A DNA stretch of 64,000 nt, taken from IMG/VR virus record IMGVR_UViG_3300008450_000005, positions 52,158 through 116,157 of that record. One strand, 5' to 3'. Positions within the stretch are counted from its first letter, which is position 1. Each line of letters begins with the position of its first letter. Origin of the DNA: a virus. Below the pieces are notes generated by a model. It was not told where the DNA came from. It was given only the letters and a program-made list of their open reading frames with translations, and searched no databases. Both the position numbers and the translations under genes were made by a program. Below, in pieces: positions 33,786-64,000 of this stretch.

Positions 33786-34199
33786 ATGCAGGATTTTTTT
33801 GAAACGGAAAGGCTAATTCAGGAAGAATACATCCATGATAAATGGAAGATGGTCGTTGTCTGCATACTATTAAATCAAACCAACAATAAACAGGTTAGGC
33901 CTATACTCGAAGATCTGTTTAAGCTCATCCCAGATGCTGGAAAGGCATCAGCAACGGGTATCCAACAGATAGCTGAAATAATCAGACCGACAGGATTTCA
34001 AAATGTGAAAGCCGACCGCATCGTAAAGATGAGTAAAAAGTGGGCATCGGGTGATCAAGAAATTTCAAAACTTCCTGGTGTTGGTAAATATGCACTAGAG
34101 TCCTGGAGAATTTTTGTTGACAGGGACTTTGGATTCACTCCAACCGATAAAAAATTAAATATTTTTTTGCAGGAAGGTGGTAACGATCGGTTACCTTAA
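33786..34199 (+). CDS. MBD4-like HhH-GPD DNA glycosylase (standalone catalytic domain)
   Basis: LIQEEYIHDKWKMVVVCILLNQT, HhH LPGVGKYALESWRIF and PTDKKL resemble the MBD4 glycosylase domain. Confidence 0.75.
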   Translation: MQDFFETERLIQEEYIHDKWKMVVVCILLNQTNNKQVRPILEDLFKLIPDAGKASATGIQQIAEIIRPTGFQNVKADRIVKMSKKWASGDQEISKLPGVGKYALESWRIFVDRDFGFTPTDKKLNIFLQEGGNDRLP

Positions 34200-34498
34200 G
34201 AGAGGTGCTTGGTGTAAAGCCAATCTTTAATAAATTCGATAACCTTCTTAGCACCCAATCCTTCTGAGCGTAAAAGATTGACGAAGTCCTCGTTAGTTGA
34301 TAACTCATCGAGGTGGATATAGATTTTATCCTTTTCAAACATGGGGTCAATTACCATCGGAAGAGGCTGTTTCTTATCTACATAATTAACAGAATTTACA
34401 TTGTCTTTATACCATTCGCCAGGGACTACAACCGATCCAGGCGATGCTGAAATGTAATATTCTGCAACATAATTTTCGAAACTTTCGACTATCCTCAT
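34196..34498 (-). CDS. Hypothetical protein with capsid-targeting-like leader
   Basis: MRIVESFENYVAE; GATACATA variant upstream on the minus strand; fills the gap between + genes. Confidence 0.55.
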   Translation of the reverse strand: MRIVESFENYVAEYYISASPGSVVVPGEWYKDNVNSVNYVDKKQPLPMVIDPMFEKDKIYIHLDELSTNEDFVNLLRSEGLGAKKVIEFIKDWLYTKHLS

Positions 34499-34506
34499 AA
34501 TAATGT

Positions 34507-35922
34507 ATGTATCCAGATATGATAGTTGATATTGAAGCTAAGAAAGACCACCTGCACATTTCTACTTTTACCGAAGAGGGGGAACCAACATTCATCAACG
34601 TTCCAATCCCAGAAGAGGAAAGGTTCGTCTGGGAGAAGTGCCCGCATAATGACGCCAAGAAAGATCCTGTTTGGAGATCTTGGGACGGCGGCCATGTCAA
34701 AAAAGTAAAGTCTAACAAATTAGACAAATACCGCATTGCACAAATACTCGAGGAAGCTGATCGGGAATTAACTGCTCCACTATGGGCACACCAAAATCCT
34801 CGCAAATACTTTGTCGATATTGAGGTTGAGATTACTGAGGAGATGAAAGATGCATTGGACACAGAAAACGCCAAAAATCGAGTTCTCAGTATCGGTATAG
34901 CAACGGACAAGAACAAGATGATTGTCTTGGGTCTCGATGATCTATCAAGCGAGCAGATCGGATCGATTCATAAAAAGCTTAACACGCATTTTGAAAAGTT
35001 CGGAGAGGAATGGAGTTTCAAATACAGAAAGTTCGTTTCAGAATTCGACATGCTCTATACGTTCTTTAAAGATCTAGCTCCCAAAATGGCTTTGATTACT
35101 GGATGGAACTGGTTCGGATATGACTGGCCCTATTTGGTTAATAGAGCAAAAAGACTCAATATCGACCCTGCTATTATTTCAGCTTCCAGATATCTAATTG
35201 GAAAGAATCAATTACCCCAACACTTACTAATGGTCGATTATCTCGATATCTATAAAAAGTGGGACAGGGTGATCAAGATCAAAGAAAGCAATCGATTGGA
35301 CTACGTTGGAGAAAAAGCTATCGGTCTGAAGAAGATTGAATACAGCGGAAGTCTTAGAGATCTTTATCAATCGGACTTCGAAAAATTCATTTTCTATAAC
35401 GCGGTTGACTGTGTTCTTCTGCACTACATCGATCAGAAGCTGAAAACAATGCTGACGTATTTTAAGATTGCCGGAGTAACTGGAGTGGAGATATCCCGTG
35501 CACTTTCGCCAGTCTGGTCAACGGAGGTAATGATGCTGAGAAAATTTTTAGAGAGAAAACAGGTTTTGCTGAATATCCCTAAAGATGATAATCACGTCAA
35601 GTTCGCTGGTGGTTACGTAAAGGAACCAACTGTAGGATTACATGAATGGGTAGCTTGTTACGATTTTGCATCACTTTATCCTAACGCTATCGTGCAGTGG
35701 GGGATTTCGCCGGAAGCATATAAGGGAAAGAATGTAGCGGATCCAAAAGAAGAATGGGTAAGAACTGCTTCAGGAGCATATTTTGGAGGGGAGGAAGAAA
35801 AACCTATTCTCCGCACGATTGTAAAAGATCTATACTCAAAAAGAAGAAAAACCAAGGATCAAATGTTAGCACTTCAGTTAGAAATTGACAAATTACAAAA
35901 AGAATTGGAAAATTTCAAATAG
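34507..35922 (+). CDS. DNA polymerase family B, N-terminal subunit (exonuclease, palm motif A, first finger helix)
   Basis: ExoI DIEVE, ExoII GWNWFGYDWPY, ExoIII YNAVD, motif A YDFASLYPN; ends before motif B. Confidence 0.88.
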   Translation: MYPDMIVDIEAKKDHLHISTFTEEGEPTFINVPIPEEERFVWEKCPHNDAKKDPVWRSWDGGHVKKVKSNKLDKYRIAQILEEADRELTAPLWAHQNPRKYFVDIEVEITEEMKDALDTENAKNRVLSIGIATDKNKMIVLGLDDLSSEQIGSIHKKLNTHFEKFGEEWSFKYRKFVSEFDMLYTFFKDLAPKMALITGWNWFGYDWPYLVNRAKRLNIDPAIISASRYLIGKNQLPQHLLMVDYLDIYKKWDRVIKIKESNRLDYVGEKAIGLKKIEYSGSLRDLYQSDFEKFIFYNAVDCVLLHYIDQKLKTMLTYFKIAGVTGVEISRALSPVWSTEVMMLRKFLERKQVLLNIPKDDNHVKFAGGYVKEPTVGLHEWVACYDFASLYPNAIVQWGISPEAYKGKNVADPKEEWVRTASGAYFGGEEEKPILRTIVKDLYSKRRKTKDQMLALQLEIDKLQKELENFK

Positions 35923-36008
35923 GGGTGGGGACAAAAAAATGGGGTTGATATATAATCATCCCAAACGATTCTCACATCATTTTTAAAACAAAGAAAACGG
36001 AAAATAAG

Positions 36009-36494
36009 ATGGAACAAAATTTAACAAATTTTCAAGAGTGCTCTCATTTAGAGATCGAGGATCACTATTCAAACAGCACCGACACGCTGAACGAATTATT
36101 AACTATGCAAAAGAATATTCAGGAGGGTGTGTACGGTTACGACTTTGAAAAAATCAGAGAAACTTTGGGGTCATTGAAATCATTTTGTGATATGAATTAT
36201 CACGCAGATCAGGACGAGTGGAGAGAATTTTTCAACGCTCTAGGAGGTGTTCACTCACACGGTGCAGCAATTTGGAAACCCTGGAAGAGTAAACACAAAG
36301 AGGCACAAGAAAAAAAGTTTACAGACCTAACTCCTGAAGAATTAAAAGAATTGCAAATGGAAGTAGTCGACCGTTGGCATTTCTTATTTAACGTAACTCT
36401 TGCGGTCGGCTTAGACGCAAAAACTCTTTTCAATTATTATGTTGCTAAAAACAAGCACAACATAGAAAGACAGCAAAGACCAGGGGGTTACTAA
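36009..36494 (+). CDS. All-alpha (MazG-like) dCTP/dUTP pyrophosphatase, T4 gp56-like
   Basis: DEWRE, WKPWK, ELQMEVVDRWHF, YVAKNKHNIERQ..GY. Confidence 0.75.
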   Translation: MEQNLTNFQECSHLEIEDHYSNSTDTLNELLTMQKNIQEGVYGYDFEKIRETLGSLKSFCDMNYHADQDEWREFFNALGGVHSHGAAIWKPWKSKHKEAQEKKFTDLTPEELKELQMEVVDRWHFLFNVTLAVGLDAKTLFNYYVAKNKHNIERQQRPGGY

Positions 36495-36521
36495 TCCAAA
36501 AAAATTTAATATAAAAAAGAT

Positions 36522-37493
36522 ATGACGGAACAGAGTTATTCAGGGACCGAGCCCATTCTTGTCGAGAATCCGCACCGGTTTGTTATTTTCCCAATCCAAT
36601 ACGATGATATTTGGGAATTCTATAAACAGCACCAAGCTGCCTTTTGGACTGCGGAGGAGATTGACTTAACTAACGATTTGAAAGACTGGGATTCCCTTTC
36701 TGACAACGAAAGATTTTTCATCAAGAACGTTTTGAGTTTCTTTGCTGCTAGTGATGGAATTGTTAACGAGAATCTGGCTGAGAATTTTTATCGAGAGGTC
36801 CAATACCCAGAAGCTAAATTCTTCTACGGATTCCAGCTGGCGATGGAAAATATCCATTCGCTTATGTACAGTCTTTTGATTGACACATACATCTCTAACC
36901 ACAAAGAAAAATTGGAATGCTTCACAGCTATTGAGCATTTACCTGCGGTTCAAAAGAAAGCTAGTTGGGCTTTGAATTGGATTGAGAATGCATCCTTCCA
37001 AGAAAGATTAGTTGCATTTGCTGCAGTTGAAGGTATTTTCTTTTCAGGATCTTTTTGCTCCATCTTCTGGTTGAAAAATAGAGGTTTGATGCCCGGTCTT
37101 TGCAACGCAAACTCGCTGATTTTCAAAGACGAAAATTTGCATTGCGATTTTGCGATCCATCTTCTGAATAACCATTGTGTCACCAGGCCCAGCGAAAAAA
37201 GGATCAAAGAGATTCTACTTTCTGCTTTGGAGATTGAAAAAGAATTTATTACAGAGAGTTTGCCTGTGTCCCTAATAGGAATGAATTCCAATCTGATGAA
37301 ACAGTATTTGGAATTTGTCGTTGATGGATTGCTCGTAAAATTCAACTGTTCAAAAGAGTTTAAAGTGGAGAATCCTTTCAAATTCATGGAACAGATTGCT
37401 GTTGAAACTAAAGGAAATTTCTTTGAAGGTCGCACCGTTGAATATCAGAAGGTGAAACTGAACGAAGGATTTTCAATCGATGAGGATTTCTAA
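36522..37493 (+). CDS. nrdB: Ribonucleotide reductase class Ia beta subunit
   Basis: [41 protein letters not shown]. Confidence 0.95.
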
Positions 37494-37511
37494 AAAAAAT
37501 TATTAAGCACT

Positions 37512-39932
37512 ATGTTTTTGAAAATTATCAAAAGAAACGGAGAAGAGACATCATTCAACCCACAAAAAATTTATACTAGAATTAAGAGATCGTCGAAAGG
37601 ATTATCTGTTAACCCAGACGAGATTTTTATCGCCGTCATCACCTCGGTTCCGACAGAGGGTGAGATCACCACAAAGCAATTGGATAAATTGATTGCCGAC
37701 ATTTCAGCCTCGTACACTGGTACACACCATGACTATTCGAGATTAGCGGCACAAACATCGATTTCTTCATTCCACAAAGAAACACTTCCTAGTTTTTCTG
37801 AGACTATGAAAGTCCTCTTTGAAGAAGGTATCATTAATGCTACCTTCCACGAAAGAATTCAAAGCTATGGACCGGAAAAAATCGATGCTTTGGTAAACCA
37901 CGAGAACGATTTCAATTTTGATTACTTTGCATGGAGATCTCTGTACGAGATGTACCTGCTAAAGAAATCTAATGGGCAAGTTTTCGAAAGACCCCAGCAC
38001 ATGTATATGAGAGTTGCTCTTTGGGTTACAGATTCCTTTGAGAGCGCAGCGGATTATTACAATTCATTATCTAATCAGCTCATCTCACCTGCGACTCCTA
38101 TTATGATCAACTCAGGAACAAAGATTCCTCAGCTTTCATCTTGTGTTCTCCATTATAATGATGGCGATTCACGTGAAGGTTTGTTGAACACAATGAGAGA
38201 CATTTCAACCTATTCATCTGACGCAGCTGGAATTGGTCTTTGCATGTCGAACATTCGAAGCAAAGAAAGCAGAATCGCTGGTTCGGGAGGTTATGCAGGA
38301 GGTCTTTTGAAGTATCTAAAGATCGTCAACGAATCACTGAGATTCTTCAATCAGCAGGGTAGAAGACCTGGCTCGGCTGCGATTTACATCGAGCCTTGGC
38401 ACAAGGATATTTTCGACCTTCTTGAGATCAAGAAAAATACCGGTGCTGATGAATTGAGAGCACGTGATCTGTTCACCGCATTATGGATTCCTGATAACTT
38501 CATGGAAGCTGTTAAGGACGGTGGGGATTGGTACCTATTCTGTCCTAACGATATTCTAAAGGCTGGTATCAAGCCACTTCAGGAATGCTACGGTTCAGAA
38601 TACGAATCCAACTACAACAAGGCTGTTGAAATGGGATTGGGTAAAAAAGTGAAAGCTCAGGACGTTTGGTTCAAGATCATCGAATCTCAGGTAGAAACAG
38701 GAGTTCCTTACTTGGCATCAAAAGATAGTGCCAACAGGAAAACCAACCACCAAAACATCGGTGTTATCCGTCAATCCAATCTTTGCATCGAAATCTTCCA
38801 AGCAACTGATGAAAAAACCACAGCCATCTGCACACTTTCATCTTTAGTTCTGAAGAATTTTGTAGATAAAACCAGAGGGTCTTTCAACTTAACAAAATTG
38901 TTTGAAGAAACCAGAAAGATCGTCAGAGCTCTTAATATTGTAATCGATGTAAACTCCTATTCAACCAAGAAAGGTGAGAAAGGAGGATTTGAACAAAGAG
39001 CTATTGGAATTGGTACTCAAGGTCTAGCTGATGTATTCTTCCTCATGGATGTAATCTTTGATTCAGAAGAGGCAAAAAGTTTGAACAAGAATATCTTTGA
39101 AACGATCTATTATGCTGCTCTTTTCGAATCTAACGAATTGGTTAAGGGTGGCAAATACAAACCATATGATTACTTCAAAGGATCACCTGTTTCCGAAGGC
39201 GTATTCCAGTTCAACATGTGGGGATTGAGTAGTTCAGATCTTTGCGGCCTGTGGGATTGGGAAAGCTTGAAAAATGATATTGCAGAATACGGAATTTGTA
39301 ATAGCTTGGTAACTGCCCAGATGCCCGTCGCATCTTCTGCTAAGGTTACAGGATCTTTCGAAATGACTGAACCAGCACACTCAGCTCTTTTTAACCGAAG
39401 AGTGGTTGGCGGTGAAATCATGATAGTGAATAAATATCTGATTCAGGATTTTGAAAAGATCGGAATATGGTGCGAGGATCTGAAAAACGAGATTATCATG
39501 AATGATGGATCGGTCCAAAATATCAATTTCAACAATTACCTGGATTCGGAGGATAAGAACTACAACAAAAGAGTTCAAAGAATAGAATTCTTGATTCAGA
39601 AGTACAGAACCATTTGGGAAATACCTCAGAGATCTTTGATCGATATGGCAGCCGACCGTGCACCTTTCATAGACCAATCACAGTCGATGAACCTGTACAT
39701 GGCAAATCCAAGTGTTTCGAAGATATCTTCCGCTCACTTCTATTCATGGAGCAAGGGACTGAAAACTCTCTCCTATTACATCAGAACCAAAGCTATCTCA
39801 ACAGGAGCTAAGCATTTGGCGATGGATATCGAGAAGAAAGAAAAACCCAAAGCGATTGAGAGCAAGCCCGAAATAGTGCAAAACTCCAGACCGGAGAATA
39901 GCGATTTCGAATGCTTCGGTTGCTCTGCTTAA
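37512..39932 (+). CDS. nrdA: Ribonucleotide reductase class Ia alpha subunit (with ATP cone)
   Basis: IIKRNG cone, QLSSC, SNLCIE, C-terminal CFGCSA; no intein seen. Confidence 0.95.
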   Translation: MFLKIIKRNGEETSFNPQKIYTRIKRSSKGLSVNPDEIFIAVITSVPTEGEITTKQLDKLIADISASYTGTHHDYSRLAAQTSISSFHKETLPSFSETMKVLFEEGIINATFHERIQSYGPEKIDALVNHENDFNFDYFAWRSLYEMYLLKKSNGQVFERPQHMYMRVALWVTDSFESAADYYNSLSNQLISPATPIMINSGTKIPQLSSCVLHYNDGDSREGLLNTMRDISTYSSDAAGIGLCMSNIRSKESRIAGSGGYAGGLLKYLKIVNESLRFFNQQGRRPGSAAIYIEPWHKDIFDLLEIKKNTGADELRARDLFTALWIPDNFMEAVKDGGDWYLFCPNDILKAGIKPLQECYGSEYESNYNKAVEMGLGKKVKAQDVWFKIIESQVETGVPYLASKDSANRKTNHQNIGVIRQSNLCIEIFQATDEKTTAICTLSSLVLKNFVDKTRGSFNLTKLFEETRKIVRALNIVIDVNSYSTKKGEKGGFEQRAIGIGTQGLADVFFLMDVIFDSEEAKSLNKNIFETIYYAALFESNELVKGGKYKPYDYFKGSPVSEGVFQFNMWGLSSSDLCGLWDWESLKNDIAEYGICNSLVTAQMPVASSAKVTGSFEMTEPAHSALFNRRVVGGEIMIVNKYLIQDFEKIGIWCEDLKNEIIMNDGSVQNINFNNYLDSEDKNYNKRVQRIEFLIQKYRTIWEIPQRSLIDMAADRAPFIDQSQSMNLYMANPSVSKISSAHFYSWSKGLKTLSYYIRTKAISTGAKHLAMDIEKKEKPKAIESKPEIVQNSRPENSDFECFGCSA

Positions 39933-39990: not shown

Positions 39991-40626
39991 ATGAAAAATA
40001 TATTGGACTTTTCATCATTTCTTTTTGAGAGAGAATTACCTGATTCACAGGGAAAAATTATAGTGATTTTAGGCCCTCCAGGATCTGGTAAAGGAACAGT
40101 CACAAAAATTCTGAAAAACGATTACGAATTTCAGGAGGTCAAAGTGAAAGAGCTGATGACCAGCGATCCTACGAAAGCTTCCAAAGACAACGTGGTAACA
40201 GAAAGAGGAATGATGGATCTTTTGAAAGAGAGAATCAAATCATTGGATCTTAGCAAAAATATAGTTTTTGACGGATTTCCTAGAACCAGAAAGCAATCGG
40301 TTATTCTGGATAAGGTTTTGGGGGAAATGGGGATAGGCTTAAATCATGCAGTTTTCCTTGATATAGAAAAAGACGTTGCTGTGAATCGTCTAAGAAAGAA
40401 AGCTGAGAAAGATGGAAAGAAATTTGATTCCGCAGCTGTAGAAGAAAAATTCCAAGATTACGAAGTTCGTACCCTTCCGGTAATAGACCAATATAAGAAG
40501 AGCAGGAAAATGATCGAGATTAAAGATCTCGGTGATGCTGAAAAGGTTTCCGAAAAGATTGTCAAAAGACTGAAGATCAAAAAGATCGCAAGCGAAAAAC
40601 CGGAAGCCGAAAACAAGAAGGCCTAA
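39991..40626 (+). CDS. adk: Adenylate kinase-family NMP kinase with capsid-targeting-like leader
   Basis: ILGPPGSGKGT, DGFPRT, TLPVIDQY; ATG at 39991 gives MKNILDFSSFLFE. Confidence 0.75.
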   Translation: MKNILDFSSFLFERELPDSQGKIIVILGPPGSGKGTVTKILKNDYEFQEVKVKELMTSDPTKASKDNVVTERGMMDLLKERIKSLDLSKNIVFDGFPRTRKQSVILDKVLGEMGIGLNHAVFLDIEKDVAVNRLRKKAEKDGKKFDSAAVEEKFQDYEVRTLPVIDQYKKSRKMIEIKDLGDAEKVSEKIVKRLKIKKIASEKPEAENKKA

Positions 40627-40694: not shown

Positions 40695-41921
40695 ATGTCT
40701 TTAGCACCCAACCAAACAGATTCAATCGTTATCACGGAACACGTCGTTCCGACAAACAGTTCAAAACAAGAAATCGAACTTTGCTTAGTGATGATAGTAA
40801 AGGACGAAGAAGACAGCATTGAAAAATGCTTGAAGTCAGTTGCTCCTTACATTTCATACTGGGTGATTGTTGATACAGGATCTTCCGATGATACGCTCAA
40901 CGTAATCAAGAAGGTAACTGAAGAATTGGGCATCCCTGGCGAATTGCACGAAAGACCATGGGTAAATTTCGAAGTAAATAGAACTGAATCGCTGGAACTT
41001 GCAAAAGGCAAGTGCGATTTCAGATGGATCATCGATGCGGATGATGAATTTATAGTGGAGGATGGCGTTAAAAATCCTTTTGCTGGATTAAGTGGAGAAG
41101 GTATTGACTGCTTCCAGTTGAAGTACAAATTGAGCGGACTCCAATATTACCGAGCACAGATCGTTGAATCCGGTCAGGAATGGTGCTACAAAGGTGTTTT
41201 ACATGAATATTTGCATTCCGACAAGGAACAGCAGAATCATGCTCAGGTCAAAGGATGCTACGTTAAGGCTGATATCTCCCCGCTCAAAAGAGCTTCTTCT
41301 GTCGAGGAAAAATATGCAAATGACGCAAAAATTCTCGAGAAAGCTTTAGATGCAGAGCCTGAAAATCACAGATACATGTTCTATCTTGCTCAAAGCTACC
41401 GCGATTCACAGCAAGACGATAAAGCTTACGCTGCTTACAAAAAAAGAGCAGAGGCTGGAGGATGGGAAGAGGAAGTTTATTATTCACTTTATATGATGGC
41501 CAAGATTAAAGAAAAATTGAAGGCATCATCTGATGATATTATTACGCATTATTCAAAAGCATGGGAATATAGACCGCAAAGATTAGAGGCTGCATTTCAT
41601 ACGATGCGAAAGCTGCGTGAGCAAAAAAGATTTGTCCTAGCATTTGCATACGGAAACGTTGCTACGAAGAGCCCAGGATGCTCCGATATCTTGTTCGTAG
41701 AGCCTGAAATGTGGCAATGGAGACTTCTTGATGAATATGCTCTAGCTGCATATTACACAGGAAATCCAGAGATTTCGATTGAGAAAACCACAGCTATAGT
41801 TGAGTCGGATTTTTTCAAAACTCTGAACCCTAAGGAGCAAGAAAGACTCACCAGAAATTTAGATCTTTATAAAAGAGGTTTTGATGCGAAAAAAAGTAAG
41901 GTAGGATCATTGAAAAGTTAA
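40695..41921 (+). CDS. Glycosyltransferase family 2 with C-terminal TPR repeats
   Basis: LCLVMIVKDEE, IVDTGSSD, IIDADD, GVLHE; TPR-like FYLAQSYRD, EEVYYS. Confidence 0.85.
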   Translation: MSLAPNQTDSIVITEHVVPTNSSKQEIELCLVMIVKDEEDSIEKCLKSVAPYISYWVIVDTGSSDDTLNVIKKVTEELGIPGELHERPWVNFEVNRTESLELAKGKCDFRWIIDADDEFIVEDGVKNPFAGLSGEGIDCFQLKYKLSGLQYYRAQIVESGQEWCYKGVLHEYLHSDKEQQNHAQVKGCYVKADISPLKRASSVEEKYANDAKILEKALDAEPENHRYMFYLAQSYRDSQQDDKAYAAYKKRAEAGGWEEEVYYSLYMMAKIKEKLKASSDDIITHYSKAWEYRPQRLEAAFHTMRKLREQKRFVLAFAYGNVATKSPGCSDILFVEPEMWQWRLLDEYALAAYYTGNPEISIEKTTAIVESDFFKTLNPKEQERLTRNLDLYKRGFDAKKSKVGSLKS

Positions 41922-44436: not shown

Positions 44437-45360
44437 ATGAGATATGGGTACTGCTGCATCAATCTTTCCATTAACGAAGGGAAAAAAGATTCTGAAAGAA
44501 TTTACACCAACCGGTCGCTCACAAAAAAGACCTTTCTTGAAGGCGGATTGAAGAAAGCTTCTGAGCTTGCTTTAAAGAACGTTCAAGATCTGGAACATAT
44601 CATAGAGTGGAACAGGGACAATGGAATAATGATGTTCCGGATGAGCTCTGATCTATTCCCGTGGTGCTCGGAATATGAGCTTTCGGATCTTCCCGACTTC
44701 GAGGAGATCAAGAAAGCACTCATGTGGTGTGGGGCAAAATCTAAAATATACAAACAGAGATTAACATTCCACCCGTCTCACTTTTGTGTTATTTCTTCTC
44801 TACGGGAAGACGTTGTAAAAAACTCAATTAAAGAATTGAGACAACATGCTGAGATTATGGATCTGATGGGACTTGAACAGAATTTCAACTATCCGATTAA
44901 TATCCATATAAATACCACCAAGCCTGATAAGGAATCTGCAGCAGCTAGATTCTGTGAAGCCTATTCACAGCTTCCAGAGAATGTTAGAAAAAGATTGGTT
45001 CTGGAAAACGACGATAAGCCTAGCGAATTTAACCCTTTCGATCTGTATGAATTGGTTCACCAGAAAGTAGGGATACCATTGACGTTTGATTATCTGCACT
45101 ACTTCTGTAACCCTCGAGATGGACATTCCGAAAAAGAAGCATTGCAGGTTTCAATATCTACATGGCCGGAGGGGATTACACCAATCACTCATTATTCAGA
45201 ATCCCGTAAATTGAACGAGGACGAAAGCAGCAAATTGCTTGCACACACCGATTGGATTTGGAGCCGAAATATCGAAACTTATGGGTTTGAAATAGATATA
45301 GAATTCGAGGTCAAAATGAAAGATCTCGCATTATTAAAATATCTTAAAAACCAAGCATGA
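44437..45360 (+). CDS. uvsE: UV-damage endonuclease (UvsE/UVDE)
   Basis: RYGYCCIN, FRMSSDLFP, HPSHF, LENDD, FDYLH, HYSES, EVKMKD. Confidence 0.9.
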   Translation: MRYGYCCINLSINEGKKDSERIYTNRSLTKKTFLEGGLKKASELALKNVQDLEHIIEWNRDNGIMMFRMSSDLFPWCSEYELSDLPDFEEIKKALMWCGAKSKIYKQRLTFHPSHFCVISSLREDVVKNSIKELRQHAEIMDLMGLEQNFNYPINIHINTTKPDKESAAARFCEAYSQLPENVRKRLVLENDDKPSEFNPFDLYELVHQKVGIPLTFDYLHYFCNPRDGHSEKEALQVSISTWPEGITPITHYSESRKLNEDESSKLLAHTDWIWSRNIETYGFEIDIEFEVKMKDLALLKYLKNQA

Positions 45361-45942: not shown

Positions 45943-46962
45943 ATGAAGGACTATTACGCAACATTAGGGGTAGATCGGAACGCAACTCCGGAGCAGATCA
46001 AAAAGGCATACCGTAAGCTAGCCATCCAATACCACCCGGATAAAACTGGTGGAGACCCTGAGTTAAATCAAAAATTTACTGACCTGACAGAGGCTTACGA
46101 TACTCTTTCGGATCCAGCTAAAAAACAAAAATACGATAATCCCGTTAGTGGATGGGGTCCATTCCAAGGGATGGAAGACATCTTCAATTTCAATATGGGA
46201 GATATTTTCAGTGGTGGAAATCGAAGATCTAAATCTGTTAAAGGTCCTAACCTGATGATCATGGTTAATCTGACTTTGGAAGAAATGGCCACCGGTTCAA
46301 AAAAGGAAATCGAACTCCGAAAAAGAACGATGTGCGTTCCGTGCAGCGGAACGGGAGCTGATAATGGACAAGCTCAAACTTGTAACCAGTGTATGGGATT
46401 AGGATTCAGAAGGAAGTCTATTAATTCGGGTTTTGGTCAGATCACTATGGACGAGGCATGCCCACATTGCGCAGGTGAAGGAAAAATAGTTACCAACGCT
46501 TGTATCTCTTGCTTTGGAAACGGATTCGTGCACGCCAATGAAAGAATAGAGGTTAAAATACCAGCTGGATTTGTCCCAGGTATGAACTTCATCTTGACTG
46601 GCAAGGGAGAATGGGTTAGAGGTTGCACAATTCCAGGCGACGTAACTGTCAAAATAGAAGAATATGCTCACCCAACTTTCGAGAGATCAAATTTAGATTT
46701 GATCTGCAATAAGAAAGTATCATTTACTAAAGCTTGCCTTGGCGGGGATCTGGAAATACCAAATCTTCTTGGCGGGTCTTTTAAATTCAACATCCCTGAA
46801 TTAACTGCACCAGGAAGAATTTTTAGACTGCAAGGCAAGGGATTGCCAAATCACTCCAATGGAGTTAAAGGCGATATAATTGTTAAGATAGTTCTTGAAA
46901 TGCCAAAGGAACTTAACGAAGAAAAAATCTCAAAATTGAGAGAACTAGAAGAAATTTTATGA
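45943..46962 (+). CDS. dnaJ: Chaperone DnaJ (class A)
   Basis: J domain with HPD, G/F region, four CxxCxGxG repeats. Confidence 0.93.
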   Translation: MKDYYATLGVDRNATPEQIKKAYRKLAIQYHPDKTGGDPELNQKFTDLTEAYDTLSDPAKKQKYDNPVSGWGPFQGMEDIFNFNMGDIFSGGNRRSKSVKGPNLMIMVNLTLEEMATGSKKEIELRKRTMCVPCSGTGADNGQAQTCNQCMGLGFRRKSINSGFGQITMDEACPHCAGEGKIVTNACISCFGNGFVHANERIEVKIPAGFVPGMNFILTGKGEWVRGCTIPGDVTVKIEEYAHPTFERSNLDLICNKKVSFTKACLGGDLEIPNLLGGSFKFNIPELTAPGRIFRLQGKGLPNHSNGVKGDIIVKIVLEMPKELNEEKISKLRELEEIL

Positions 46963-49575: not shown

Positions 49576-50733
49576 ATGATGGAGATGGAAACAAAAACAA
49601 AGGATGATCTCAGAAAAGAAATAGAACGTCTAACCAATCTTAAGAATGAACTGAAGAACGAAGAGCAGGCGGTTAAGCTAACGATGAATTCGATTTATGG
49701 AGCTGTAGGAAACTCGTTTTTCGTTTGTCAGAATCCCGATGTGGCGGAAGCTGTAACATTGCAGGGACAAGACTTGATTAAGTTTGCGGAGAAGATTATC
49801 AATAGGTATTTCAATGAACATTGGCATATAGACAAGGAGTTACACGAGAAGATTGGTCTGACAGAGGTTCGAAGAATTGCTAGACCTCTAGTAATATACA
49901 TTGACACTGATTCGAACTATGTTTCTTTTGAGGAGGTTGTCAAATCGTGTGATTGGAATGGAACTCCAATGGATTTGATCTTAAAAATAAACGAGTACCG
50001 TATAAACGATTATCTCAAGAATTGCTTGAATATCTACGCTAAAAAATGGGGCACAGAAAACTGCCAGGATTTTGAGCTTGAGACATTATCACACAATGCT
50101 ATCTTCTTAGGAAAAAAGAAATACGTTGTCAACCTCGCTTATGACTCTGGGATAACTATCCAGAGTTTGAAAGAATTGAAATTCACTGGTGTTGAGATGG
50201 TAAAGGGCGGTACGCCTCCTTTTGTTCGGGAGAAGCTGATTTACTTAACCAAATACATCTTTACTCATGGTTCAAAATTTGAGTTAAAGAATTTCGTTAA
50301 AGAGATCAAAGATATCAAGAAGGAATTCAAGATTCAAGAACCCGATAGAATTTCTGCAGGTATCACATCTAATAACTACGAGAAGTTTATACTCAACGAT
50401 TCGACCTCTCTCGAGGTAGCAGGCAGCTGTCCTATCCACGTAAGAGCTTCGGGATTCCACAATTTCCTTCTGAATAATTCTAAATACAAAAGTAAATACC
50501 CGCTAATACAGAGTGGAGAAAAGGTCAGATGGTATTTCGTTAAAACCAAAAAAGTCACAGACTGCAATGTTTTTGCTTATTCACAAGGAACATACCCATA
50601 CGAATTTGCACCGGCGATTGACTATGATATGCAATTCACCAAAACGATTCTAGATCCGATAAATAGATTCATTGAAGCAATGGGTCATAATCCTATCAGT
50701 CCTAATTTATTTACCATAACAGCCTTATTCTAA
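49576..50733 (+). CDS. DNA polymerase family B, C-terminal subunit (second finger helix, motifs B and C, thumb)
   Basis: KLTMNSIYG (B), YIDTDS (C), KKKY, TGVE; hydrophobic tail TITALF. Confidence 0.88.
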   Translation: MMEMETKTKDDLRKEIERLTNLKNELKNEEQAVKLTMNSIYGAVGNSFFVCQNPDVAEAVTLQGQDLIKFAEKIINRYFNEHWHIDKELHEKIGLTEVRRIARPLVIYIDTDSNYVSFEEVVKSCDWNGTPMDLILKINEYRINDYLKNCLNIYAKKWGTENCQDFELETLSHNAIFLGKKKYVVNLAYDSGITIQSLKELKFTGVEMVKGGTPPFVREKLIYLTKYIFTHGSKFELKNFVKEIKDIKKEFKIQEPDRISAGITSNNYEKFILNDSTSLEVAGSCPIHVRASGFHNFLLNNSKYKSKYPLIQSGEKVRWYFVKTKKVTDCNVFAYSQGTYPYEFAPAIDYDMQFTKTILDPINRFIEAMGHNPISPNLFTITALF

Positions 50734-56382: not shown

Positions 56383-56964
56383 ATGAGAAACCTATTTTTT
56401 ATCGTGGGGATGCTGTTGCATCTTCAACTATTCGCACAGAAAGACACATTTGTAGTAAGACCATCATTCGAGGTTGTCTACAGCCAAAAGAAAAAGCAAC
56501 CTTTGGTTCTAACCTACAAGGTAGAGTCTCTCCCGTGTAATGCAACCCGTAAGGGAATGGATTTTTTCCCAGAGAAGGGTATCATCACTTCATTGGATCC
56601 AGACTATGCTAATAATGATTATGATAAAGGGCATTTTGCTCCTGCTGCTAGCTTTTGCCAATCAAGAGATTTAATGCTTTCAACTTTTTCTTATTTAAAT
56701 TGCGCACTCCAACACTATAAATTGAATCGTGGATCATGGAAAGAATTAGAGGAGCAGGAAAGAACTTGGGCTCAAACCGAAGTTATCAAAGTTAAAATTG
56801 AATCCTTTTATGATGCTACTCCAAACCTTTTACCAACCGGTGCAGATATTCCAGACGGCTTTACAAAAACTATTACTTTTACTAAGACTGGTCAGGTGAG
56901 AAAATACTATTTCCCCAATAAAGAATGCCCTGGAAATTTTGATCTATATAGAATAGCCAATTAA
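56383..56964 (+). CDS. Secreted DNA/RNA non-specific endonuclease (NucA/EndoG family)
   Basis: Signal peptide; YDKGHFAPAA, TFSYLN..LQ..LNRGSWKELE. Confidence 0.85.
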   Translation: MRNLFFIVGMLLHLQLFAQKDTFVVRPSFEVVYSQKKKQPLVLTYKVESLPCNATRKGMDFFPEKGIITSLDPDYANNDYDKGHFAPAASFCQSRDLMLSTFSYLNCALQHYKLNRGSWKELEEQERTWAQTEVIKVKIESFYDATPNLLPTGADIPDGFTKTITFTKTGQVRKYYFPNKECPGNFDLYRIAN

Positions 56965-57001: not shown

Positions 57002-57280
57002 ATGAACAATAATTTTGAAATTTTGAAAATGTCGGCCGACTGGTGTGGACCGTGTCAGGCAACAAAACCTACTTTTGCATCTTTCGCTACAAGCCATCCC
57101 GCTATCGCCTGTAAAGAGGTTAACGTTGATACAGAGGGCGATTTGGCAAGAAGCTATAATGTCAGGGGAATTCCTGCATTGATCTTTTTGAAAGATGGTG
57201 AAGTTGTAAATCGTCACGTCGGAGCATTTTCTTTAGCACAATTGGAGGAGTTATCCTCTGCTGCCTTTGGCACTTTATGA
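57002..57280 (+). CDS. trxA: Thioredoxin
   Basis: ADWCGPC, VRGIP, FLKDG. Confidence 0.9.
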   Translation: MNNNFEILKMSADWCGPCQATKPTFASFATSHPAIACKEVNVDTEGDLARSYNVRGIPALIFLKDGEVVNRHVGAFSLAQLEELSSAAFGTL

Positions 57281-57648
57281 AAATTGCTATTATAGCACAC
57301 GATGGCATGAAAGCTCAAATGGTGAGCTTTCTTATGCACAACAGAAAATTAATTAAAAGCAGCGGAACAGAGATTGTTGCCACTGGCACCACCGGTAAGT
57401 TCGTAAAAGAAGCCGGACTGGATGTCCAGTGCGTAAAATCTGGTCCTCTGGGAGGTGATGCACAGATAGCGTCGATGATGGTAGAGGGAAAGATCGATAT
57501 GATTTTCTTTTTTCGAGATCCATTAGGGAAACATCCTCATGAGCCTGATGTACAAATGTTATTAAGGCTTTGCGATGTTCATAATGTACCATTGGCAACA
57601 AACCCAGCAACTGCCGAAAGATTAATTAAGACGCTAGAACAAATATGA
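57277..57648 (+). CDS. mgsA: Methylglyoxal synthase
   Basis: IAHDGMK, ATGTTG, SGPLGGDAQI, FFRDPL..HPHEPD, ATNPATA. Confidence 0.92.
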   Translation: MKIAIIAHDGMKAQMVSFLMHNRKLIKSSGTEIVATGTTGKFVKEAGLDVQCVKSGPLGGDAQIASMMVEGKIDMIFFFRDPLGKHPHEPDVQMLLRLCDVHNVPLATNPATAERLIKTLEQI

Positions 57649-58451
57649 CCAAAACATTCCAGAAACCGTCAGATGCAATTACCTGGACAAAAAAATCCAT
57701 GTATGATTACGGTTATGAAGTAAGAACCGAAAAATGGCAAAGCGTTGATGCTCCAGATTCGATGTGGGAGAAGCTAAATCACTCTTTTGCATTTGTGGTT
57801 CCTGAGACTATTGATGAATTGGTCAAAGAGGTACGTCCAAATCTGCCATGGGCGGATGATCACTTCGCTGAAAGAGTTAGCGGGATTCCTTACAATCCTC
57901 CTCCGTCCAATGAATGGTGGCCATTCAACCAAAAGAAGAATGCTGAATTTAAGAAGGATGAAAAATTCTCACACACATATCCCGAAAGGATCTGGCCGAA
58001 ATTCGGCGGAGAGAAATTTTCAGAATCTTTAATGAGCGATCATATCGAGCAGCCACACAATGGAATCAGATTCGCTTATGGCGACTTTTACGATGTATTA
58101 GATCTATTAGAGAAAGAACCTTATACCAGGCAAGCTTATCTCCCCATGTGGTTCCCTGAGGACACTGGATCTGTCCACGGAGAAAGGGTTCCTTGCTCAC
58201 TTGGATGGCACTTTATTCGGAGAGGAGATCACTTGCACATTAACTATTACATCAGATCATGTGATTTCATCAGACACTTCCGTGATGACATCTATTTAGC
58301 CTGCCGCAAACTTCATTGGGCTTTGGATATCCTTAGGGATAAGGACCCAGAAAAGTGGAAAGATGTAAAACCAGGATGGTTTACCATGCATATTACCTCT
58401 CTGCATTGCTTTAATTCGGAGAAAGGATTATTAAAATTAGCCAAAACGTGA
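57645..58451 (+). CDS. Thymidylate-synthase-fold enzyme, probable dCMP C5-modifying enzyme (methyl/hydroxymethyl transferase-like)
   Basis: TRQA, catalytic PC, RSCDFIRHFRDD (Asp at the position equivalent to E. coli TS Asn177), SLHCF. Confidence 0.65.
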   Translation: MTKTFQKPSDAITWTKKSMYDYGYEVRTEKWQSVDAPDSMWEKLNHSFAFVVPETIDELVKEVRPNLPWADDHFAERVSGIPYNPPPSNEWWPFNQKKNAEFKKDEKFSHTYPERIWPKFGGEKFSESLMSDHIEQPHNGIRFAYGDFYDVLDLLEKEPYTRQAYLPMWFPEDTGSVHGERVPCSLGWHFIRRGDHLHINYYIRSCDFIRHFRDDIYLACRKLHWALDILRDKDPEKWKDVKPGWFTMHITSLHCFNSEKGLLKLAKT

Positions 58452-60360: not shown

Positions 60361-61044
60361 ATGGCTGTACCAACTTCGGATATTAAACTTAGTGATATTT
60401 GGGCTGAAGCCAATGGGGCATACAGCTCAGGAGCTCTGAGTTTACTCGACATCTCTTTTTTCTCCTATTTTGCCGGACCCAATGGATCTAATTCCAGATC
60501 AGACAACAACTGGGGGGTACAAGAGGGAAGCGGTGATAACCGGATTTATGGAACAAACTATAAGACGGATAATTACGAAATGGGTGATTATTCGGGTCTT
60601 ACCTATTTTTACGATCAGGGAACATTTCAGGTCAATATTCAGATCACGAATAATTTAACCGTACCAACCACACCTCCAGATCCTCCGGATCTCAATGATG
60701 TGAATGTGAACATTGAACTGTGGGATTCTACTTTTTCCTACCAGTATTTAGCAGGAGGTGGGCAGGCAATGTCTGGAGGAGGGCAATACGGTCCGAGTGA
60801 CGTGAGTTCTTCCGCCGACCCCATCATATTTCGCGGATATTGGAAAGTTGTTATCTCAGGATCAAATCCTATGTTTGCCGGGTGCCTTGCGGACCTTACC
60901 ATCAATGGTAATACTATTTTTACGGGTCAGGCCGTTTCGGGAGGTCCCGGCGGAACGACCTTTGATTCCACCGGATTCAGTACAGAGGACGTTGCCCCAT
61001 TCGGCGGTGTCACTGGCTTGTGGTTTAATGTAACGGTTTACTAA
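60361..61044 (+). CDS. Gly-rich putative virion protein
   Basis: MAVPTSDIKLSDIWAE start; G/S/T-rich; GATAAATA upstream. Confidence 0.5.
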   Translation: MAVPTSDIKLSDIWAEANGAYSSGALSLLDISFFSYFAGPNGSNSRSDNNWGVQEGSGDNRIYGTNYKTDNYEMGDYSGLTYFYDQGTFQVNIQITNNLTVPTTPPDPPDLNDVNVNIELWDSTFSYQYLAGGGQAMSGGGQYGPSDVSSSADPIIFRGYWKVVISGSNPMFAGCLADLTINGNTIFTGQAVSGGPGGTTFDSTGFSTEDVAPFGGVTGLWFNVTVY

Positions 61045-61045
61045 A

Positions 61046-61264
61046 ATGATAATTATAGATTGGATAGAAACTTACATTTTTTTAGGATATCCACCCAGTC
61101 ATCAGCTTGAGGAAGAAATTTTCAGTAAGGCTAAACAGGTTGGTTCAAGCTGGAAAAGGGGGAATCCCAAAGACCCGAATTCCTACCCATTTCTATCAAA
61201 AATATCATTCTATCCGAAGCCTTTTCTAGAGAAATATTTCCAGGACAGAGTCGGTAGTCAGTAG
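61046..61264 (+). CDS. Hypothetical protein
   Basis: 72-aa ORF. Confidence 0.45.
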   Translation: MIIIDWIETYIFLGYPPSHQLEEEIFSKAKQVGSSWKRGNPKDPNSYPFLSKISFYPKPFLEKYFQDRVGSQ

Positions 61265-61294
61265 ATAAATATCCAACATAAAGATAATGATAGC

Positions 61295-61489
61295 ATGGTC
61301 AAACCTGAGGAGAGAGAAATATACGAGGATGCTATTGACATTTATATCGATTTGGTAAAGTCACAGGAGACCAGTGCATATTTAGAAAATGCCAATCAAT
61401 GTTTGCATATGTTGGAATACTTTGAAGAGTTTGAAAAGTGTAAAGAACTGATTAGCATTTTCCCACATCTTAAATACAAAAATGGATAA
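61295..61489 (+). CDS. Small protein with UVR-like EEFExC motif
   Basis: MLEYFEEFEKCKEL. Confidence 0.55.
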   Translation: MVKPEEREIYEDAIDIYIDLVKSQETSAYLENANQCLHMLEYFEEFEKCKELISIFPHLKYKNG

Positions 61490-61709
61490 CGTCGATATTT
61501 TTGAAGATGCTTTAGCTAAGCTGAGATCCGAAGGGATCAAAATTTGGATGCACCCGGTTATCCAACCTTATGCGGAAAAGATTTTTTATATGATGATTAC
61601 CCATTACGAGGAAAGAGAAGAATATGAAAATTGTTCGTTTCTAAAAACAACTTGGGAGAAATATCAGAAATGTTTAACTATCTCAAAAATTATTGGCAAT
61701 TTGAGATAA
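61482..61709 (+). CDS. Small protein with UVR-like EEYExC motif
   Basis: MITHYEEREEYENCSFLK. Confidence 0.55.
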   Translation: MDNVDIFEDALAKLRSEGIKIWMHPVIQPYAEKIFYMMITHYEEREEYENCSFLKTTWEKYQKCLTISKIIGNLR

Positions 61710-61768
61710 TTTTTTTGCCGTATGGGTGCAAAACGAGGAACTTTGTGGATAGATAAAATAAAAAAAAT

Positions 61769-61942
61769 ATGTCCAAAAAATCTTCGCCTAAGTCAAACCA
61801 TTCGATCGTCGAAAACCTGAAGAGGATTCTCGCTGAAATGAAATCCAGACAATCAGTTGCTAAAAAGAAACAAGTTTTTGATGAATTTTTAAAATCCGAA
61901 TTGGAAAGATATCAGAAAGATGATATTCATATCGGGATTTAA
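61769..61942 (+). CDS. Small basic hypothetical protein; not in the ORF track
   Basis: Translated by hand, 57 aa: MSKKSSPKSNHSIVENLKG...DIHIGI. Confidence 0.45.
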   Translation: MSKKSSPKSNHSIVENLKRILAEMKSRQSVAKKKQVFDEFLKSELERYQKDDIHIGI

Positions 61943-61979
61943 AAATTGAAAATTTTTTCTGAGATAGATAGTGGTAATT

Positions 61980-62378
61980 ATGCCACTTGACTATTCAATT
62001 TCTTTAGATCTAATAAGCAAAAATAACATAGACGAAGAAAAATTAATCTCTGTAAAGAAGCTAGTATCCCTTAAACCGATACCAACCGAATTAAAAGAAT
62101 CTCTTGTTGAGATTTTAGAAAACCAAAAAGGGAAAAAACTAGAAATTTACATCGAGGACCTTGAAATCTCCGAGGATGCAGAAGACGATCTTCAAGATTT
62201 CATAGCAGAATTGGATGAGGAAATTATCCAATTAGCGGATGAATCGCTGTTCATTTGGGCTAGTTCTTATCCTGCTTGCCTGAAAATTTTTAAGAAGAAC
62301 GGATTTACCTGGGATTATACGGAAGAATCCGATGAGGAGTACGATTTAGACTTGCCTATTTGGGAAGACTATGAATAA
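61980..62378 (+). CDS. Highly acidic hypothetical protein
   Basis: D/E-rich; probable start MPLDY after GATAGATA. Confidence 0.5.
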   Translation: MPLDYSISLDLISKNNIDEEKLISVKKLVSLKPIPTELKESLVEILENQKGKKLEIYIEDLEISEDAEDDLQDFIAELDEEIIQLADESLFIWASSYPACLKIFKKNGFTWDYTEESDEEYDLDLPIWEDYE

Positions 62379-63126
62379 TCCGTTAGCTGTCGGATCACCC
62401 GATTATAGACGGCTCTCCGAACTAAATAGAGCAACAGACGAACTTGATATCTCTAGGCTCGACACGAAGCAAATTCCTAATAGTAAGAGCTACCCACGGA
62501 AAATCTATGTTTTGAATCTCCCAGAGAGAGAAGACAGATGGATTCGTTTCCAAAGCATGAATCAAGAACTGTTTGAGATATTTGACGTGGTCAGATTTGA
62601 TGCACTTAAAACCTCAGATGTCCAGGATGCTATTTTCAAAAGTTTCAAAACTTGTATAGGAAAAGCAGAAGATGAGACCTTTATCGTGATGGAGGATGAT
62701 GCATTTTTGGTTGAAGGAGCAATCCAGCATCTCCACAAGATATGGGAGCAAATCCCAGGAGATTGGGATGTTTTATTTGGAAACCATTATTTCTATTCCA
62801 AGCTGGAAATTATCAACGATGTGGTAGCGAAGCCAATAGGACGGGCGTCTACAGCTAATTTCGGGATTTATTCGAAATCACTATTGCCGAAGCTAGATGA
62901 CTTATCAATGAGAGAGGACAGATCACTCAGTGAATGGGATCATTTCTTAACCGGCAATCCCTCCATTAATAACTATGTCTTGTGGCCGATGGTTTCTCGT
63001 GAGGTTGCAGGATTTTCTGATCATAGGGGAAGGGAAATGAATATTAATCTCCGATTGAGAGAACACAGATATAGGTTCAATTTTCTCGATAATGAGAAAT
63101 TCTATGAAGCAATCTGGAAAACGTAG
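62371..63126 (+). CDS. Glycosyltransferase family 25-like
   Basis: IYVLNLPEREDRW, RFDA, IVMEDDA, DWDVLF. Confidence 0.7.
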   Translation: MNNPLAVGSPDYRRLSELNRATDELDISRLDTKQIPNSKSYPRKIYVLNLPEREDRWIRFQSMNQELFEIFDVVRFDALKTSDVQDAIFKSFKTCIGKAEDETFIVMEDDAFLVEGAIQHLHKIWEQIPGDWDVLFGNHYFYSKLEIINDVVAKPIGRASTANFGIYSKSLLPKLDDLSMREDRSLSEWDHFLTGNPSINNYVLWPMVSREVAGFSDHRGREMNINLRLREHRYRFNFLDNEKFYEAIWKT

Positions 63127-63150
63127 GATATAAGATGTAATTTTACAACA

Positions 63151-63414
63151 ATGAGGAAATTTAATTTTATTGAGACTGTAATCATTGGCACGATCACATG
63201 TCTTATCGGATTGATGATTGGTTCTAAAACTTGTACTAATGATGTAACAAGGGACTGTATGGGGCGAGTTCAAAAACTTTCTTACCAGGTTGATTCTCTT
63301 TCAAACGAAAATCTGGGTCTGAAAATAGAATTGGGCAGGTATGAGATAATTCACACCAGATTGTTAGATGAGTTTCCAGAAGTTGAGGGAGAGGTAACCA
63401 AAAATTTGGAATAG
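63151..63414 (+). CDS. Membrane-anchored coiled-coil hypothetical protein
   Basis: N-terminal TM helix, [15 protein letters not shown]. Confidence 0.55.
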
Positions 63415-63415
63415 C

Positions 63416-64000
63416 ATGAGTAATAACCTAGACAAACAGTATTTGGATCTCCTTCAAGATATCCTCGATAAAGGAGTTAAAAAGGAGGACAGAACAGGTA
63501 CGGGTACGATTTCTGTTTTCGGCAGGCAAATAAGACACAAGATGTCTGAAGGATTTCCATTGCTTACAACCAAGAAAATAGCTTGGAAGACAATGGTTAC
63601 TGAGTTACTTTGGTTCTTAAGAGGCGATACAAACATCAAATACCTTGTTGATAATGATTGTCATATTTGGGATGGTGATGCGTTCAAGTACTACACAAAA
63701 AAAGTTAATGAAATTATTGATGGATATAAATGTGGTGATATCATGGGAATGCAAGACCACATTGAAAAGTTATTTAGTGACTCTGATAAATTAACACCAT
63801 TAACAATGGATGAGTTCATCAACAAAATCAAAACAGACGATGAGTTTGCTAAAGAGTGGGGTGAATTAGGACCAATTTATGGTAAGCAATGGAGAAGTTG
63901 GAGCCGAAATGCAACCCGTGATGAGAAAATAGTTGACCCTGGTGTTTATACAAAACAAATAGACCAAATCCAAAACCTAATCAACGACCTTAAAACAAAT
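63416..64000 (+). CDS. thyA: Thymidylate synthase ThyA (truncated by window end; not in the ORF track)
   Basis: Translated by hand: [36 protein letters not shown]...FPLLTTKK...[11 protein letters not shown]...[10 protein letters not shown]. Confidence 0.93.

Follow-up and report, generated by a model that had tools for sequence, protein, structure and literature searches.

A thymidylate-synthase-fold enzyme with a cytosine-type specificity residue and an MBD4-like glycosylase in a jumbo phage contig: a candidate system for cytosine modification and repair

The DNA examined here (the window) is a stretch of 64,000 nucleotides that forms the last 64 kb of a 116,157-base IMG/VR virus contig (IMGVR_UViG_3300008450_000005, positions 52,158 to 116,157), a fragment of a jumbo phage. 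Along it lie genes for a divergent enzyme with the thymidylate synthase (TS) fold, a homologue of the T4 pyrophosphatase gp56, a nucleoside monophosphate (NMP) kinase, a canonical TS (ThyA) and a DNA glycosylase resembling MBD4. An original prediction, made from the sequence letters, had singled out these genes and proposed that the phage replaces cytosine with a C5-modified cytosine at the nucleotide level and encodes a glycosylase to repair the resulting deamination damage. The coordinates of the open reading frames and starts that it named are correct, as judged by an open reading frame check. The features at issue are the following, in window coordinates:

33786..34199, + strand: MBD4-like HhH-GPD DNA glycosylase, 137 amino acids; MBD4 domains matched at 2e-17; catalytic Asp121
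36009..36494, + strand: homologue of T4 gp56, all-alpha dCTPase/dUTPase family (phrog_173), directly after the gene for the N-terminal part of PolB
39991..40626, + strand: NMP kinase of the adenylate/UMP-CMP kinase family; ADK 3e-22 and UMP_CMP_kin_fam 1.6e-22, under all curated cut-offs
57645..58451, + strand: divergent TS-fold enzyme of the RHFRDD clade, 268 amino acids; Cys184, Arg204-Ser205-x-Asp207, and Asp215 at the ThyA Asn177 position
63416..64000, + strand: canonical ThyA, N-terminal 195 amino acids; Pfam Thymidylat_synt positions 1-122 at 8e-45; cut by the contig end

The protein encoded at 57645 contains ERVPCSLGWHF, then YYIRSCDFIRHFRDD; in the reference records, E. coli ThyA reads MALAPCH...RSCDVFLGLPFN and T4 gp42 reads SDFMCT...RSNDVVFGFRND. 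Asp215 had originally been placed opposite ThyA Asn177, and this pairing was reproduced by profile alignments to MilA, the HY126 hydroxylase, L. casei TS N229D, T4 gp42 and PaMx74 TS. A 5.8-billion-protein collection contains more than 5,900 homologues, and an exhaustive search gave 555 clusters at 50% identity. Among 58 diverse homologues that were aligned, Arg181, Cys184, Arg204, Asp215 and His254 are invariant, while Ser205 and Asp207 are each retained in 57; Cys184, Arg204, Ser205 and Asp207 align with ThyA C146, R166, S167 and D169. Since Asp215 is invariant clade-wide, the cytosine-type residue belongs to the entire clade and not to one sequence. A search of the PDB with the single 57645 sequence gave nothing significant. 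With a profile of the clade, MilA (2.7e-10) and the HY126 hydroxylase (4e-9) were retrieved, together with L. casei TS N229D and T4 gp42. The AlphaFold2 model of the protein has a pLDDT of 91.7, and Foldseek gave 396 PDB matches at E<=0.001, all of the TS family among the matches listed, with MilA at the top (TM 0.68). We conclude that the 57645 protein is a genuine but distant TS-fold enzyme with a cytosine-type specificity residue, as had been claimed for this second TS-fold gene. An Asn177Asp change turns TS to deoxycytidine monophosphate (dCMP) and marks modified-cytosine contigs (PMC13326640; PMC8670742), which makes the 57645 protein a candidate dCMP C5-modifying enzyme.

For the glycosylase at 33786, the match to the glycosylase domain of MBD4 reaches 2e-17, that to endonuclease III only 9e-4 and that to Pfam HhH-GPD 2.7e-8. 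MBD4 domains are thus its best solved matches, in agreement with the original assignment. About 120 residues align with the mammalian MBD4 domain, to which it is similar in size; the helix-hairpin-helix motif is conserved, as is the catalytic Asp (tptDkkLN on hpeDhkLN), and Asp121 is invariant among the phage glycosylase homologues. The protein has a single Cys and therefore no four-Cys iron-sulfur cluster like that of endonuclease III. It differs from MBD4 in lacking the methyl-CpG-binding domain and in reading LNQTNNK where MBD4 reads LNRTSGK; MBD4 acts in a CpG context, whereas here the setting is a phage genome in which possibly every cytosine is modified. MBD4 excises T, U and 5-hydroxymethyluracil opposite G (PMC3458566), and with this substrate range a glycosylase of its kind would fit a 5-methylcytosine or a 5-hydroxymethylcytosine genome alike.

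When 50,697 phage records were searched by tblastn, glycosylase homologues were found in 14 of them, belonging only to the Xp12 group (including AXL1), Janthinobacterium phage Donnerlittchen and cyanophage S-TIM54. The TS enzymes of Xp12 and Donnerlittchen, like that of PaMx74, carry Asp at the Asn177 position. So does the sole TS of S-TIM54 (record positions 145421-146233), which reads PPCH...RSNDMATGVPLD. In Xp12, Donnerlittchen and AXL1, the glycosylase gene directly precedes the genes for a pyrophosphatase, TS, dCMP deaminase and dihydrofolate reductase (DHFR), and in Xp12 these five genes form one same-strand block. The MBD4-like glycosylase thus accompanies an Asp-type TS in three unrelated phage lineages and three TS subfamilies. 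Xp12 is the classical phage in which 5-methylcytosine replaces all cytosine. The predicted link between this glycosylase and modified cytosine gains independent support from this pattern, which we regard as the strongest new result of the analysis. The DNA of AXL1 is resistant to enzymes whose sites contain G/C, and in the paper on this phage the gene figures only as one for an ENDO3c protein of unclear activity that Xp12 has as well (PMC9206674); we found no paper in the literature searched that links Xp12 with MBD4 or a glycosylase. S-TIM54, which has a glycosylase homologue and no gp56 homologue, is itself a candidate modified-cytosine cyanophage.

The remaining enzymes of the set were also as predicted. 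The gp56 homologue, confirmed in its position after the polymerase N-subunit gene, aligns with T4 gp56 end to end (34% identity and 55% positives over 161 of 171 residues, full length, E 6e-31), and its 1,388 near-full-length matches (at least 80% of the query) are all from T4-like phages. The kinase gene, which belongs to the adenylate/UMP-CMP kinase family and has its likely start codon, the ATG at 39991, downstream of a terminator-like hairpin, is syntenic in 22 of 31 related loci and is a candidate for the kinase that would act on modified dCMP. For the 63416 copy of ThyA, the contig end places the catalytic Cys and Asn177 outside the sequence; full-length orthologues in two relatives have PCH, Asn177 (RSVDTFLGLPFN or RSQDVPLGTPFN) and a ThyA-type tail. 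Given this separate canonical ThyA, the 57645 enzyme is not needed for thymidine monophosphate (dTMP). Four near-complete relatives (92-100% complete) each have one dCMP deaminase gene, far from the TS homologue, and none has a PF00186 DHFR. In two relatives, ThyA is encoded in two pieces about 1.1 kb apart (profile positions 1-90 and 76-265; G003:C1:43968-46073 and G004:C1:220086-222191), which suggests an intervening element like the T4 td intron.

Co-occurrence of the three central genes in related jumbo phages was proposed originally as a check. The TS homologue, the gp56 homologue and the glycosylase were found together in 10 of 10 related contigs tested, including a 373 kb genome with terminal repeats, and canonical ThyA in all five of the contigs tested for it. 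Beyond this lineage, the RHFRDD TS clade also occurs in small siphophages of very different hosts, namely Muddy (a mycobacteriophage, in which gp46 is the clade member), Zuko, Serbin and Yersinia phage P744. Their block comprises a kinase, a dimeric-dUTPase-like pyrophosphatase, an unknown protein (here protein X), the TS, a dCMP deaminase and PolA. This arrangement resembles the neighbourhood reported around dCMP deaminases on predicted modified-cytosine contigs, which includes TS, a MafB19-type deaminase, an NTP pyrophosphatase and PolA (bioRxiv 10.1101/2024.12.05.627091). The IMG/VR screen in that study required a PF00303 hit of about 1e-7; the RHFRDD clade reaches about 1e-3 and may have been missed by it.

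Two side observations concern the clade. Protein X (270-350 amino acids, unannotated, no Pfam match) always lies between the dUTPase-like and TS-clade genes (L051:5033-5926, L052:4868-5929, L005:6214-7047 and L006:6183-6992, from Muddy, Zuko, P744 and Serbin, respectively). The P744 version, labelled 'pyrimidine hmase synthase', bears a faint likeness to the TS active-site segment; no homologue of protein X is present in the contig studied here. Some clade members (P0150, P0155, P0190, P0200 and P0248) contain insertions. In P0150 (636 amino acids), about 355 extra, intein-like residues start exactly at the catalytic Cys (GRVP|CFTAGT...), and several members of about 400 amino acids are interrupted near profile position 105 by about 130 additional residues.

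Phages such as T4, Xp12 and RB69 are known to replace cytosine at the nucleotide level, and the set of genes found here can be compared with the known systems. With T4 (gp42, gp56, gp1, td, cd) the phage has in common an Asp-type TS-fold enzyme, gp56, an NMP kinase, ThyA, ribonucleotide reductase (RNR), thioredoxin and, in its relatives, dCMP deaminase. The kinase is of the adenylate-kinase type, however, and not of the T4 gp1 type, and T4 lacks an MBD4-like glycosylase (tblastn). Nor is gp42 an orthologue of the 57645 protein: it scores 30 bits against the clade profile and has Asp instead of Arg at the position of ThyA L143. It has Thr after the catalytic Cys, whereas the 57645 protein has Ser; both have a short C-terminus (30 and 14 residues, respectively). 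The dCMP methyltransferases of Xp12 and PaMx74 resemble the 57645 protein in the Asp at the Asn177 position, the VPC motif and a similar insertion before the Cys, and an NTP pyrophosphatase is likewise common to these phages and the present one. The Xp12 group (Xp12 and AXL1), but not PaMx74, also has in common with it the MBD4-like glycosylase, at 32-34% identity. Xp12-type enzymes differ in having a 63-residue ThyA-like tail, Asn at the L143 position and no second canonical TS nearby, and their genes stand in one block with those for the deaminase and for DHFR, an enzyme not found in the jumbo lineage. The 57645 protein does not combine clear kinship with a ThyA-like tail, as an Xp12-type methyltransferase would.

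Two further groups of enzymes are closer by profile. MilA (CMP 5-hydroxymethylase; PDB 5b6d, 5jnh) is the best profile and structural match, with Asp at the Asn177 position and with CTL after the catalytic Cys, as in the RHFRDD clade consensus; it differs in sequence (13-15% identity), in acting on a ribonucleotide in antibiotic synthesis and in having Asp at the L143 position. The flavin-dependent 5-hydroxy-dCMP synthases (RB69 gp48, DLP3 gp80 and HY126; PDB 9iqu) also have the TS fold and Asp at the Asn177 position, and the HY126 hydroxylase is the second-best profile match. Their diagnostic D169N is absent here: the equivalent Asp207 is kept in 57 of the 58 aligned clade members (PMC13326640).

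As to which modification might be made, published markers assign N177D to the dCMP substrate, L143D/E to hydroxymethyl over methyl products, and D169N to the flavin-dependent 5-hydroxy-dCMP synthases (PMC13326640). Since the 57645 protein retains Asp207 at the D169 position, where the 5-hydroxy type has Asn, a 5-hydroxy product is unlikely. At the L143 position, an acidic residue admits water in the T4-type dCMP hydroxymethylase (PMC13326640); the clade has the invariant Arg181 instead. Leu occupies this position in ThyA, Asn in Xp12 and PaMx74, and Asp in gp42 and MilA, so that the marker makes no call between methyl and hydroxymethyl. The residue after the catalytic Cys is Ser or Thr in the clade, as in gp42 and MilA. 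After the conserved His, 14 residues follow in the 57645 protein (14-21 in the clade), as against 57 in ThyA, 63 in the Xp12-type enzymes and 30 in gp42; the clade thus lacks the ThyA-like C-terminal tail that the four methyl-forming enzymes in the alignment possess. In ThyA, this tail closes over the folate and is needed for the reductive, methyl-forming step, and its loss leans towards a hydroxymethylase-like or other non-reductive outcome. Methylation is favoured, conversely, by the best non-clade BLAST match of the 57645 protein, the Xp12 enzyme (26.6% over 128 residues, 3e-8), and by the glycosylase held in common with 5-methylcytosine phages. On account of the missing tail, we lean slightly towards hydroxymethyl over methyl as the predicted product. 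The invariant Arg at the L143 position, the basic active-site loop and the missing tail also raise a more speculative idea, which we hold to be doubtful: the RHFRDD clade may carry out a dCMP C5 chemistry other than methylation, hydroxymethylation or hydroxylation, in which case the jumbo phages would carry an undescribed cytosine derivative repaired by a dedicated MBD4-like glycosylase.

From the gene identities, folds, active-site residues and co-occurrence patterns described above, we infer substrate, product, extent of replacement and glycosylase specificity as follows. A C5-modified deoxycytidine nucleotide would be made before replication and built into DNA, as in T4 and Xp12. The gp56 homologue would hydrolyse dCTP (and dUTP) to the monophosphate. 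In the 57645 enzyme, Cys184 would attack C6 of dCMP while Asp215 recognises the N3/N4 edge of cytosine, and a one-carbon unit from methylene-tetrahydrofolate would be added at C5. The adenylate/UMP-CMP-type kinase would return the product to the triphosphate pool for incorporation by the split B-family polymerase, and canonical ThyA and, in relatives, dCMP deaminase would make dTMP separately. Deamination of the modified cytosine would produce T:G or 5-hydroxymethyl-U:G mispairs, from which the MBD4-like glycosylase would remove the base, starting base-excision repair. On balance, we think it rather probable that the phage replaces cytosine with a C5-modified cytosine at the nucleotide level and encodes a glycosylase for its repair. 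Of the case originally made for this interpretation, the Asp-type TS clade, the T4-type enzyme set, the co-occurrence and the glycosylase link carry the weight; the argument from palindromes adds little.

That argument held that C-containing palindromes are common rather than avoided, as fits protected DNA. We counted palindromes on the whole 116 kb contig and compared them with a Markov expectation. The four sites named by eye are indeed not avoided (observed/expected 0.96 for GATC, 1.04 for GAATTC, 1.02 for AAGCTT and 0.98 for AGATCT). Others are under-represented, with CGCG (0.53) and GCGC (0.57) reaching roughly half the number expected under the Markov model (z about -4), followed by GGCC (0.77), GTAC (0.81) and CTAG (0.83). 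GATC is an estimated 1.9 times commoner than base composition predicts, an excess that is gone after Markov correction.

Several points weigh against cytosine replacement. The palindrome statistics are weak either way, neither supporting nor refuting protected DNA. Against Pfam PF00303, the 57645 protein scores 18.9 bits (about 1e-3), under the gathering cut-off of 24.3, with only its central 60 residues matching, and the closest characterised enzyme, of the Xp12 type, is only about 26% identical, so that applying the Asn177Asp rule here is an extrapolation. None of the characterised enzymes in the comparison has Arg at the L143 position. The phage has no clear DNA glycosyltransferase, and no alpha- or beta-glucosyltransferase homologue was seen. 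The ten contigs in which the three genes co-occur form a single syntenic lineage and count, being non-independent, as one observation. The small phages that carry the RHFRDD clade are without the glycosylase (tblastn), and no report of modified cytosine in Muddy, GTE2, PMBT14 or other phages with the clade, including many Gordonia phages, was found in the literature searched. Gene 56 occurs also in T4 relatives without gene 42, where it supplies dUMP (PMC2993671), which means that a gp56 homologue is not diagnostic. No trimeric dUTPase was found in the four near-complete relatives, and the gp56 homologue may be the phage's sole dUTPase.

The last three points, the silence of the literature on Muddy-type phages, the gene 56 precedent and the lack of another dUTPase in near-complete relatives, would be expected if these genes served only thymidylate and deoxynucleotide supply in a phage with ordinary cytosine. 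The gp56 homologue would then be a dUTPase, and the TS homologue would either make 5-methyl-dCMP that is deaminated to dTMP/dTTP, an Xp12-type bypass, or be a redundant TS. A 5-methylcytosine-to-T deaminase route has already been described (bioRxiv 10.1101/2024.12.05.627091), and in the small phages the clade TS stands beside a dCMP deaminase and is the sole annotated TS in the regions examined. Yet this phage and its relatives also keep a canonical Asn177 ThyA, which makes a bypass unnecessary; the deaminase of the relatives is distant from the TS homologue, and the glycosylase, found otherwise only in phages with an Asp-type TS, would be left without a special role. We consider this explanation unlikely, though it deserves to be kept in mind. 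Even less can be said for a TS homologue that acts on CMP or another pyrimidine nucleotide to yield a small molecule or RNA-related product, as MilA does in mildiomycin synthesis. The CMP hydroxymethylase MilA is the top match by profile and structure, the RHFRDD loop and invariant Arg181 are unlike any characterised dCMP enzyme, and a 4-base overlap joins the TS homologue to a methylglyoxal synthase gene. However, the MilA match is weak (13-15% identity, TM 0.68), four other phage lineages embed the clade among genes for kinase, NTP pyrophosphatase, dCMP deaminase and DNA polymerase, and the gp56 homologue co-occurs with the TS homologue in 10 of 10 relatives tested. Together these make such an activity very improbable.

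The glycosylase, for its part, might not be tied to the phage's own base and instead serve general uracil or mismatch repair, or act on host DNA as a weapon or counter-defence. It lies in the replication block next to PolB rather than adjoining the TS homologue, LNQTNNK in place of the MBD4 LNRTSGK means that its DNA handling may differ, and MBD4 also removes U opposite G (PMC3458566). The restriction of its cultured-phage homologues to lineages with an Asp-type TS, and their position inside the modification block in Xp12, Donnerlittchen and AXL1, render an untied glycosylase improbable, and we retain repair of the phage's own modified cytosine as the preferred reading.

Neither the TS clade nor the MBD4-like glycosylase coupled to it appears to have been characterised in the literature searched, while the logic of the pathway is that of T4 and Xp12. 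No published activity was found there for the RHFRDD clade, and the RHFRDD motif was found neither in the paper texts searched nor in the eLife 2021 supplements. A very large and widespread TS-fold clade with the dCMP-type Asp, with members in the therapeutic mycobacteriophage Muddy and in many Gordonia, Streptomyces, Serratia and Clostridium phages, thus appears undescribed in these sources. If the clade modifies cytosine, this would bear on restriction evasion, sequencing and engineering of the phages that carry it. The jumbo phage would then be a virus that repairs specific deamination damage caused by its own non-canonical base, and its glycosylase a possible source of compact T:G or hmU:G glycosylases that are not CpG-restricted.

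Other genes of the window give the context of the TS homologue and the replication genes:

36522..39932, + strand: class I RNR, small then large subunit (deoxynucleotide-supply context)
44437..45360, + strand: UvdE-type endonuclease; UvdE 4.8e-50
56383..56964, + strand: DNA/RNA non-specific endonuclease; Endonuclease_NS 4e-23
57002..57280, + strand: thioredoxin, first of a three-gene run; Thioredoxin 1.6e-17
57277..57648, + strand: methylglyoxal synthase homologue; MgsA structures 2e-36; overlaps the start of the TS homologue by 4 bases

The thioredoxin, methylglyoxal synthase and TS homologue genes are chained by 4-base overlaps. The thioredoxin probably serves RNR. In 5 of 41 related loci, a methylglyoxal synthase gene with 65-71% identity adjoins the TS homologue. 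The non-specific endonuclease, encoded just upstream of the run and near the TS homologue in 10 of the 41, could possibly degrade unmodified DNA, and the UvdE-type endonuclease might provide an incision step after base excision. A GT2 glycosyltransferase with tetratricopeptide repeats (TPR) is encoded right after the kinase (40695-41921) and found in 21 of 31 related loci, with 66% median identity. As a DNA glycosyltransferase it was rejected, its best solved matches being the protein glycosyltransferases SunS and GmaR, and it more likely modifies protein. Between the TS homologue and ThyA, the 251-amino-acid product of 62371-63126 has no Pfam match; language-model features and the predicted structure (TM 0.68) liken it to viral glycosyltransferases of the GT25 family, and it has a weak PHROG 'glucosyltransferase' match, which makes a GT25-like glycosyltransferase only a lead.

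The related contigs of the jumbo lineage measure 218-373 kb, those of complete relatives 250-373 kb, and the 373 kb contig with terminal repeats is rated complete. The contig studied here has a GC content of 39% and nearly all its genes on the + strand. The PolB N-terminal part is 29-37% identical to its counterparts in huge uncultured phages and Lak megaphages. Megablast of the region against phage records gave no match, NCBIfam profiles gave no informative name, and the homologue clusters are named only 'hypothetical protein'. A scan of genome contigs found kin of the TS homologue in only two contigs from metagenome-assembled genomes, CALAZP010000032.1 (Saprospirales) and JAEORV010000306.1 (Promethearchaeota); their TS homologues are 62-63% identical to the 57645 protein and have the same gene neighbours, and both contigs are probably phage DNA caught in bins. 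The Saprospirales bin hints at a Bacteroidota host, as does the resemblance of the polymerase to those of Prevotella and Chryseobacterium phages.

The block of glycosylase, PolB N-part, gp56 homologue, RNR beta, RNR alpha, kinase and GT2-TPR genes is syntenic in 21-28 of 31 related loci. The B-family polymerase is split into an N-terminal (exonuclease) gene at 34507-35922 and a C-terminal (polymerase) gene at 49576-50733, separated by 13.6 kb in which genes for RNR, the kinase, topoisomerase II, UvdE and DnaJ are found. Beside the replication genes, the phage also encodes a full-length Hsp70/DnaK (31173-33071, 4e-250), a zinc-finger DnaJ (45943-46962) and a ferritin/Dps-like protein (33162-33725).

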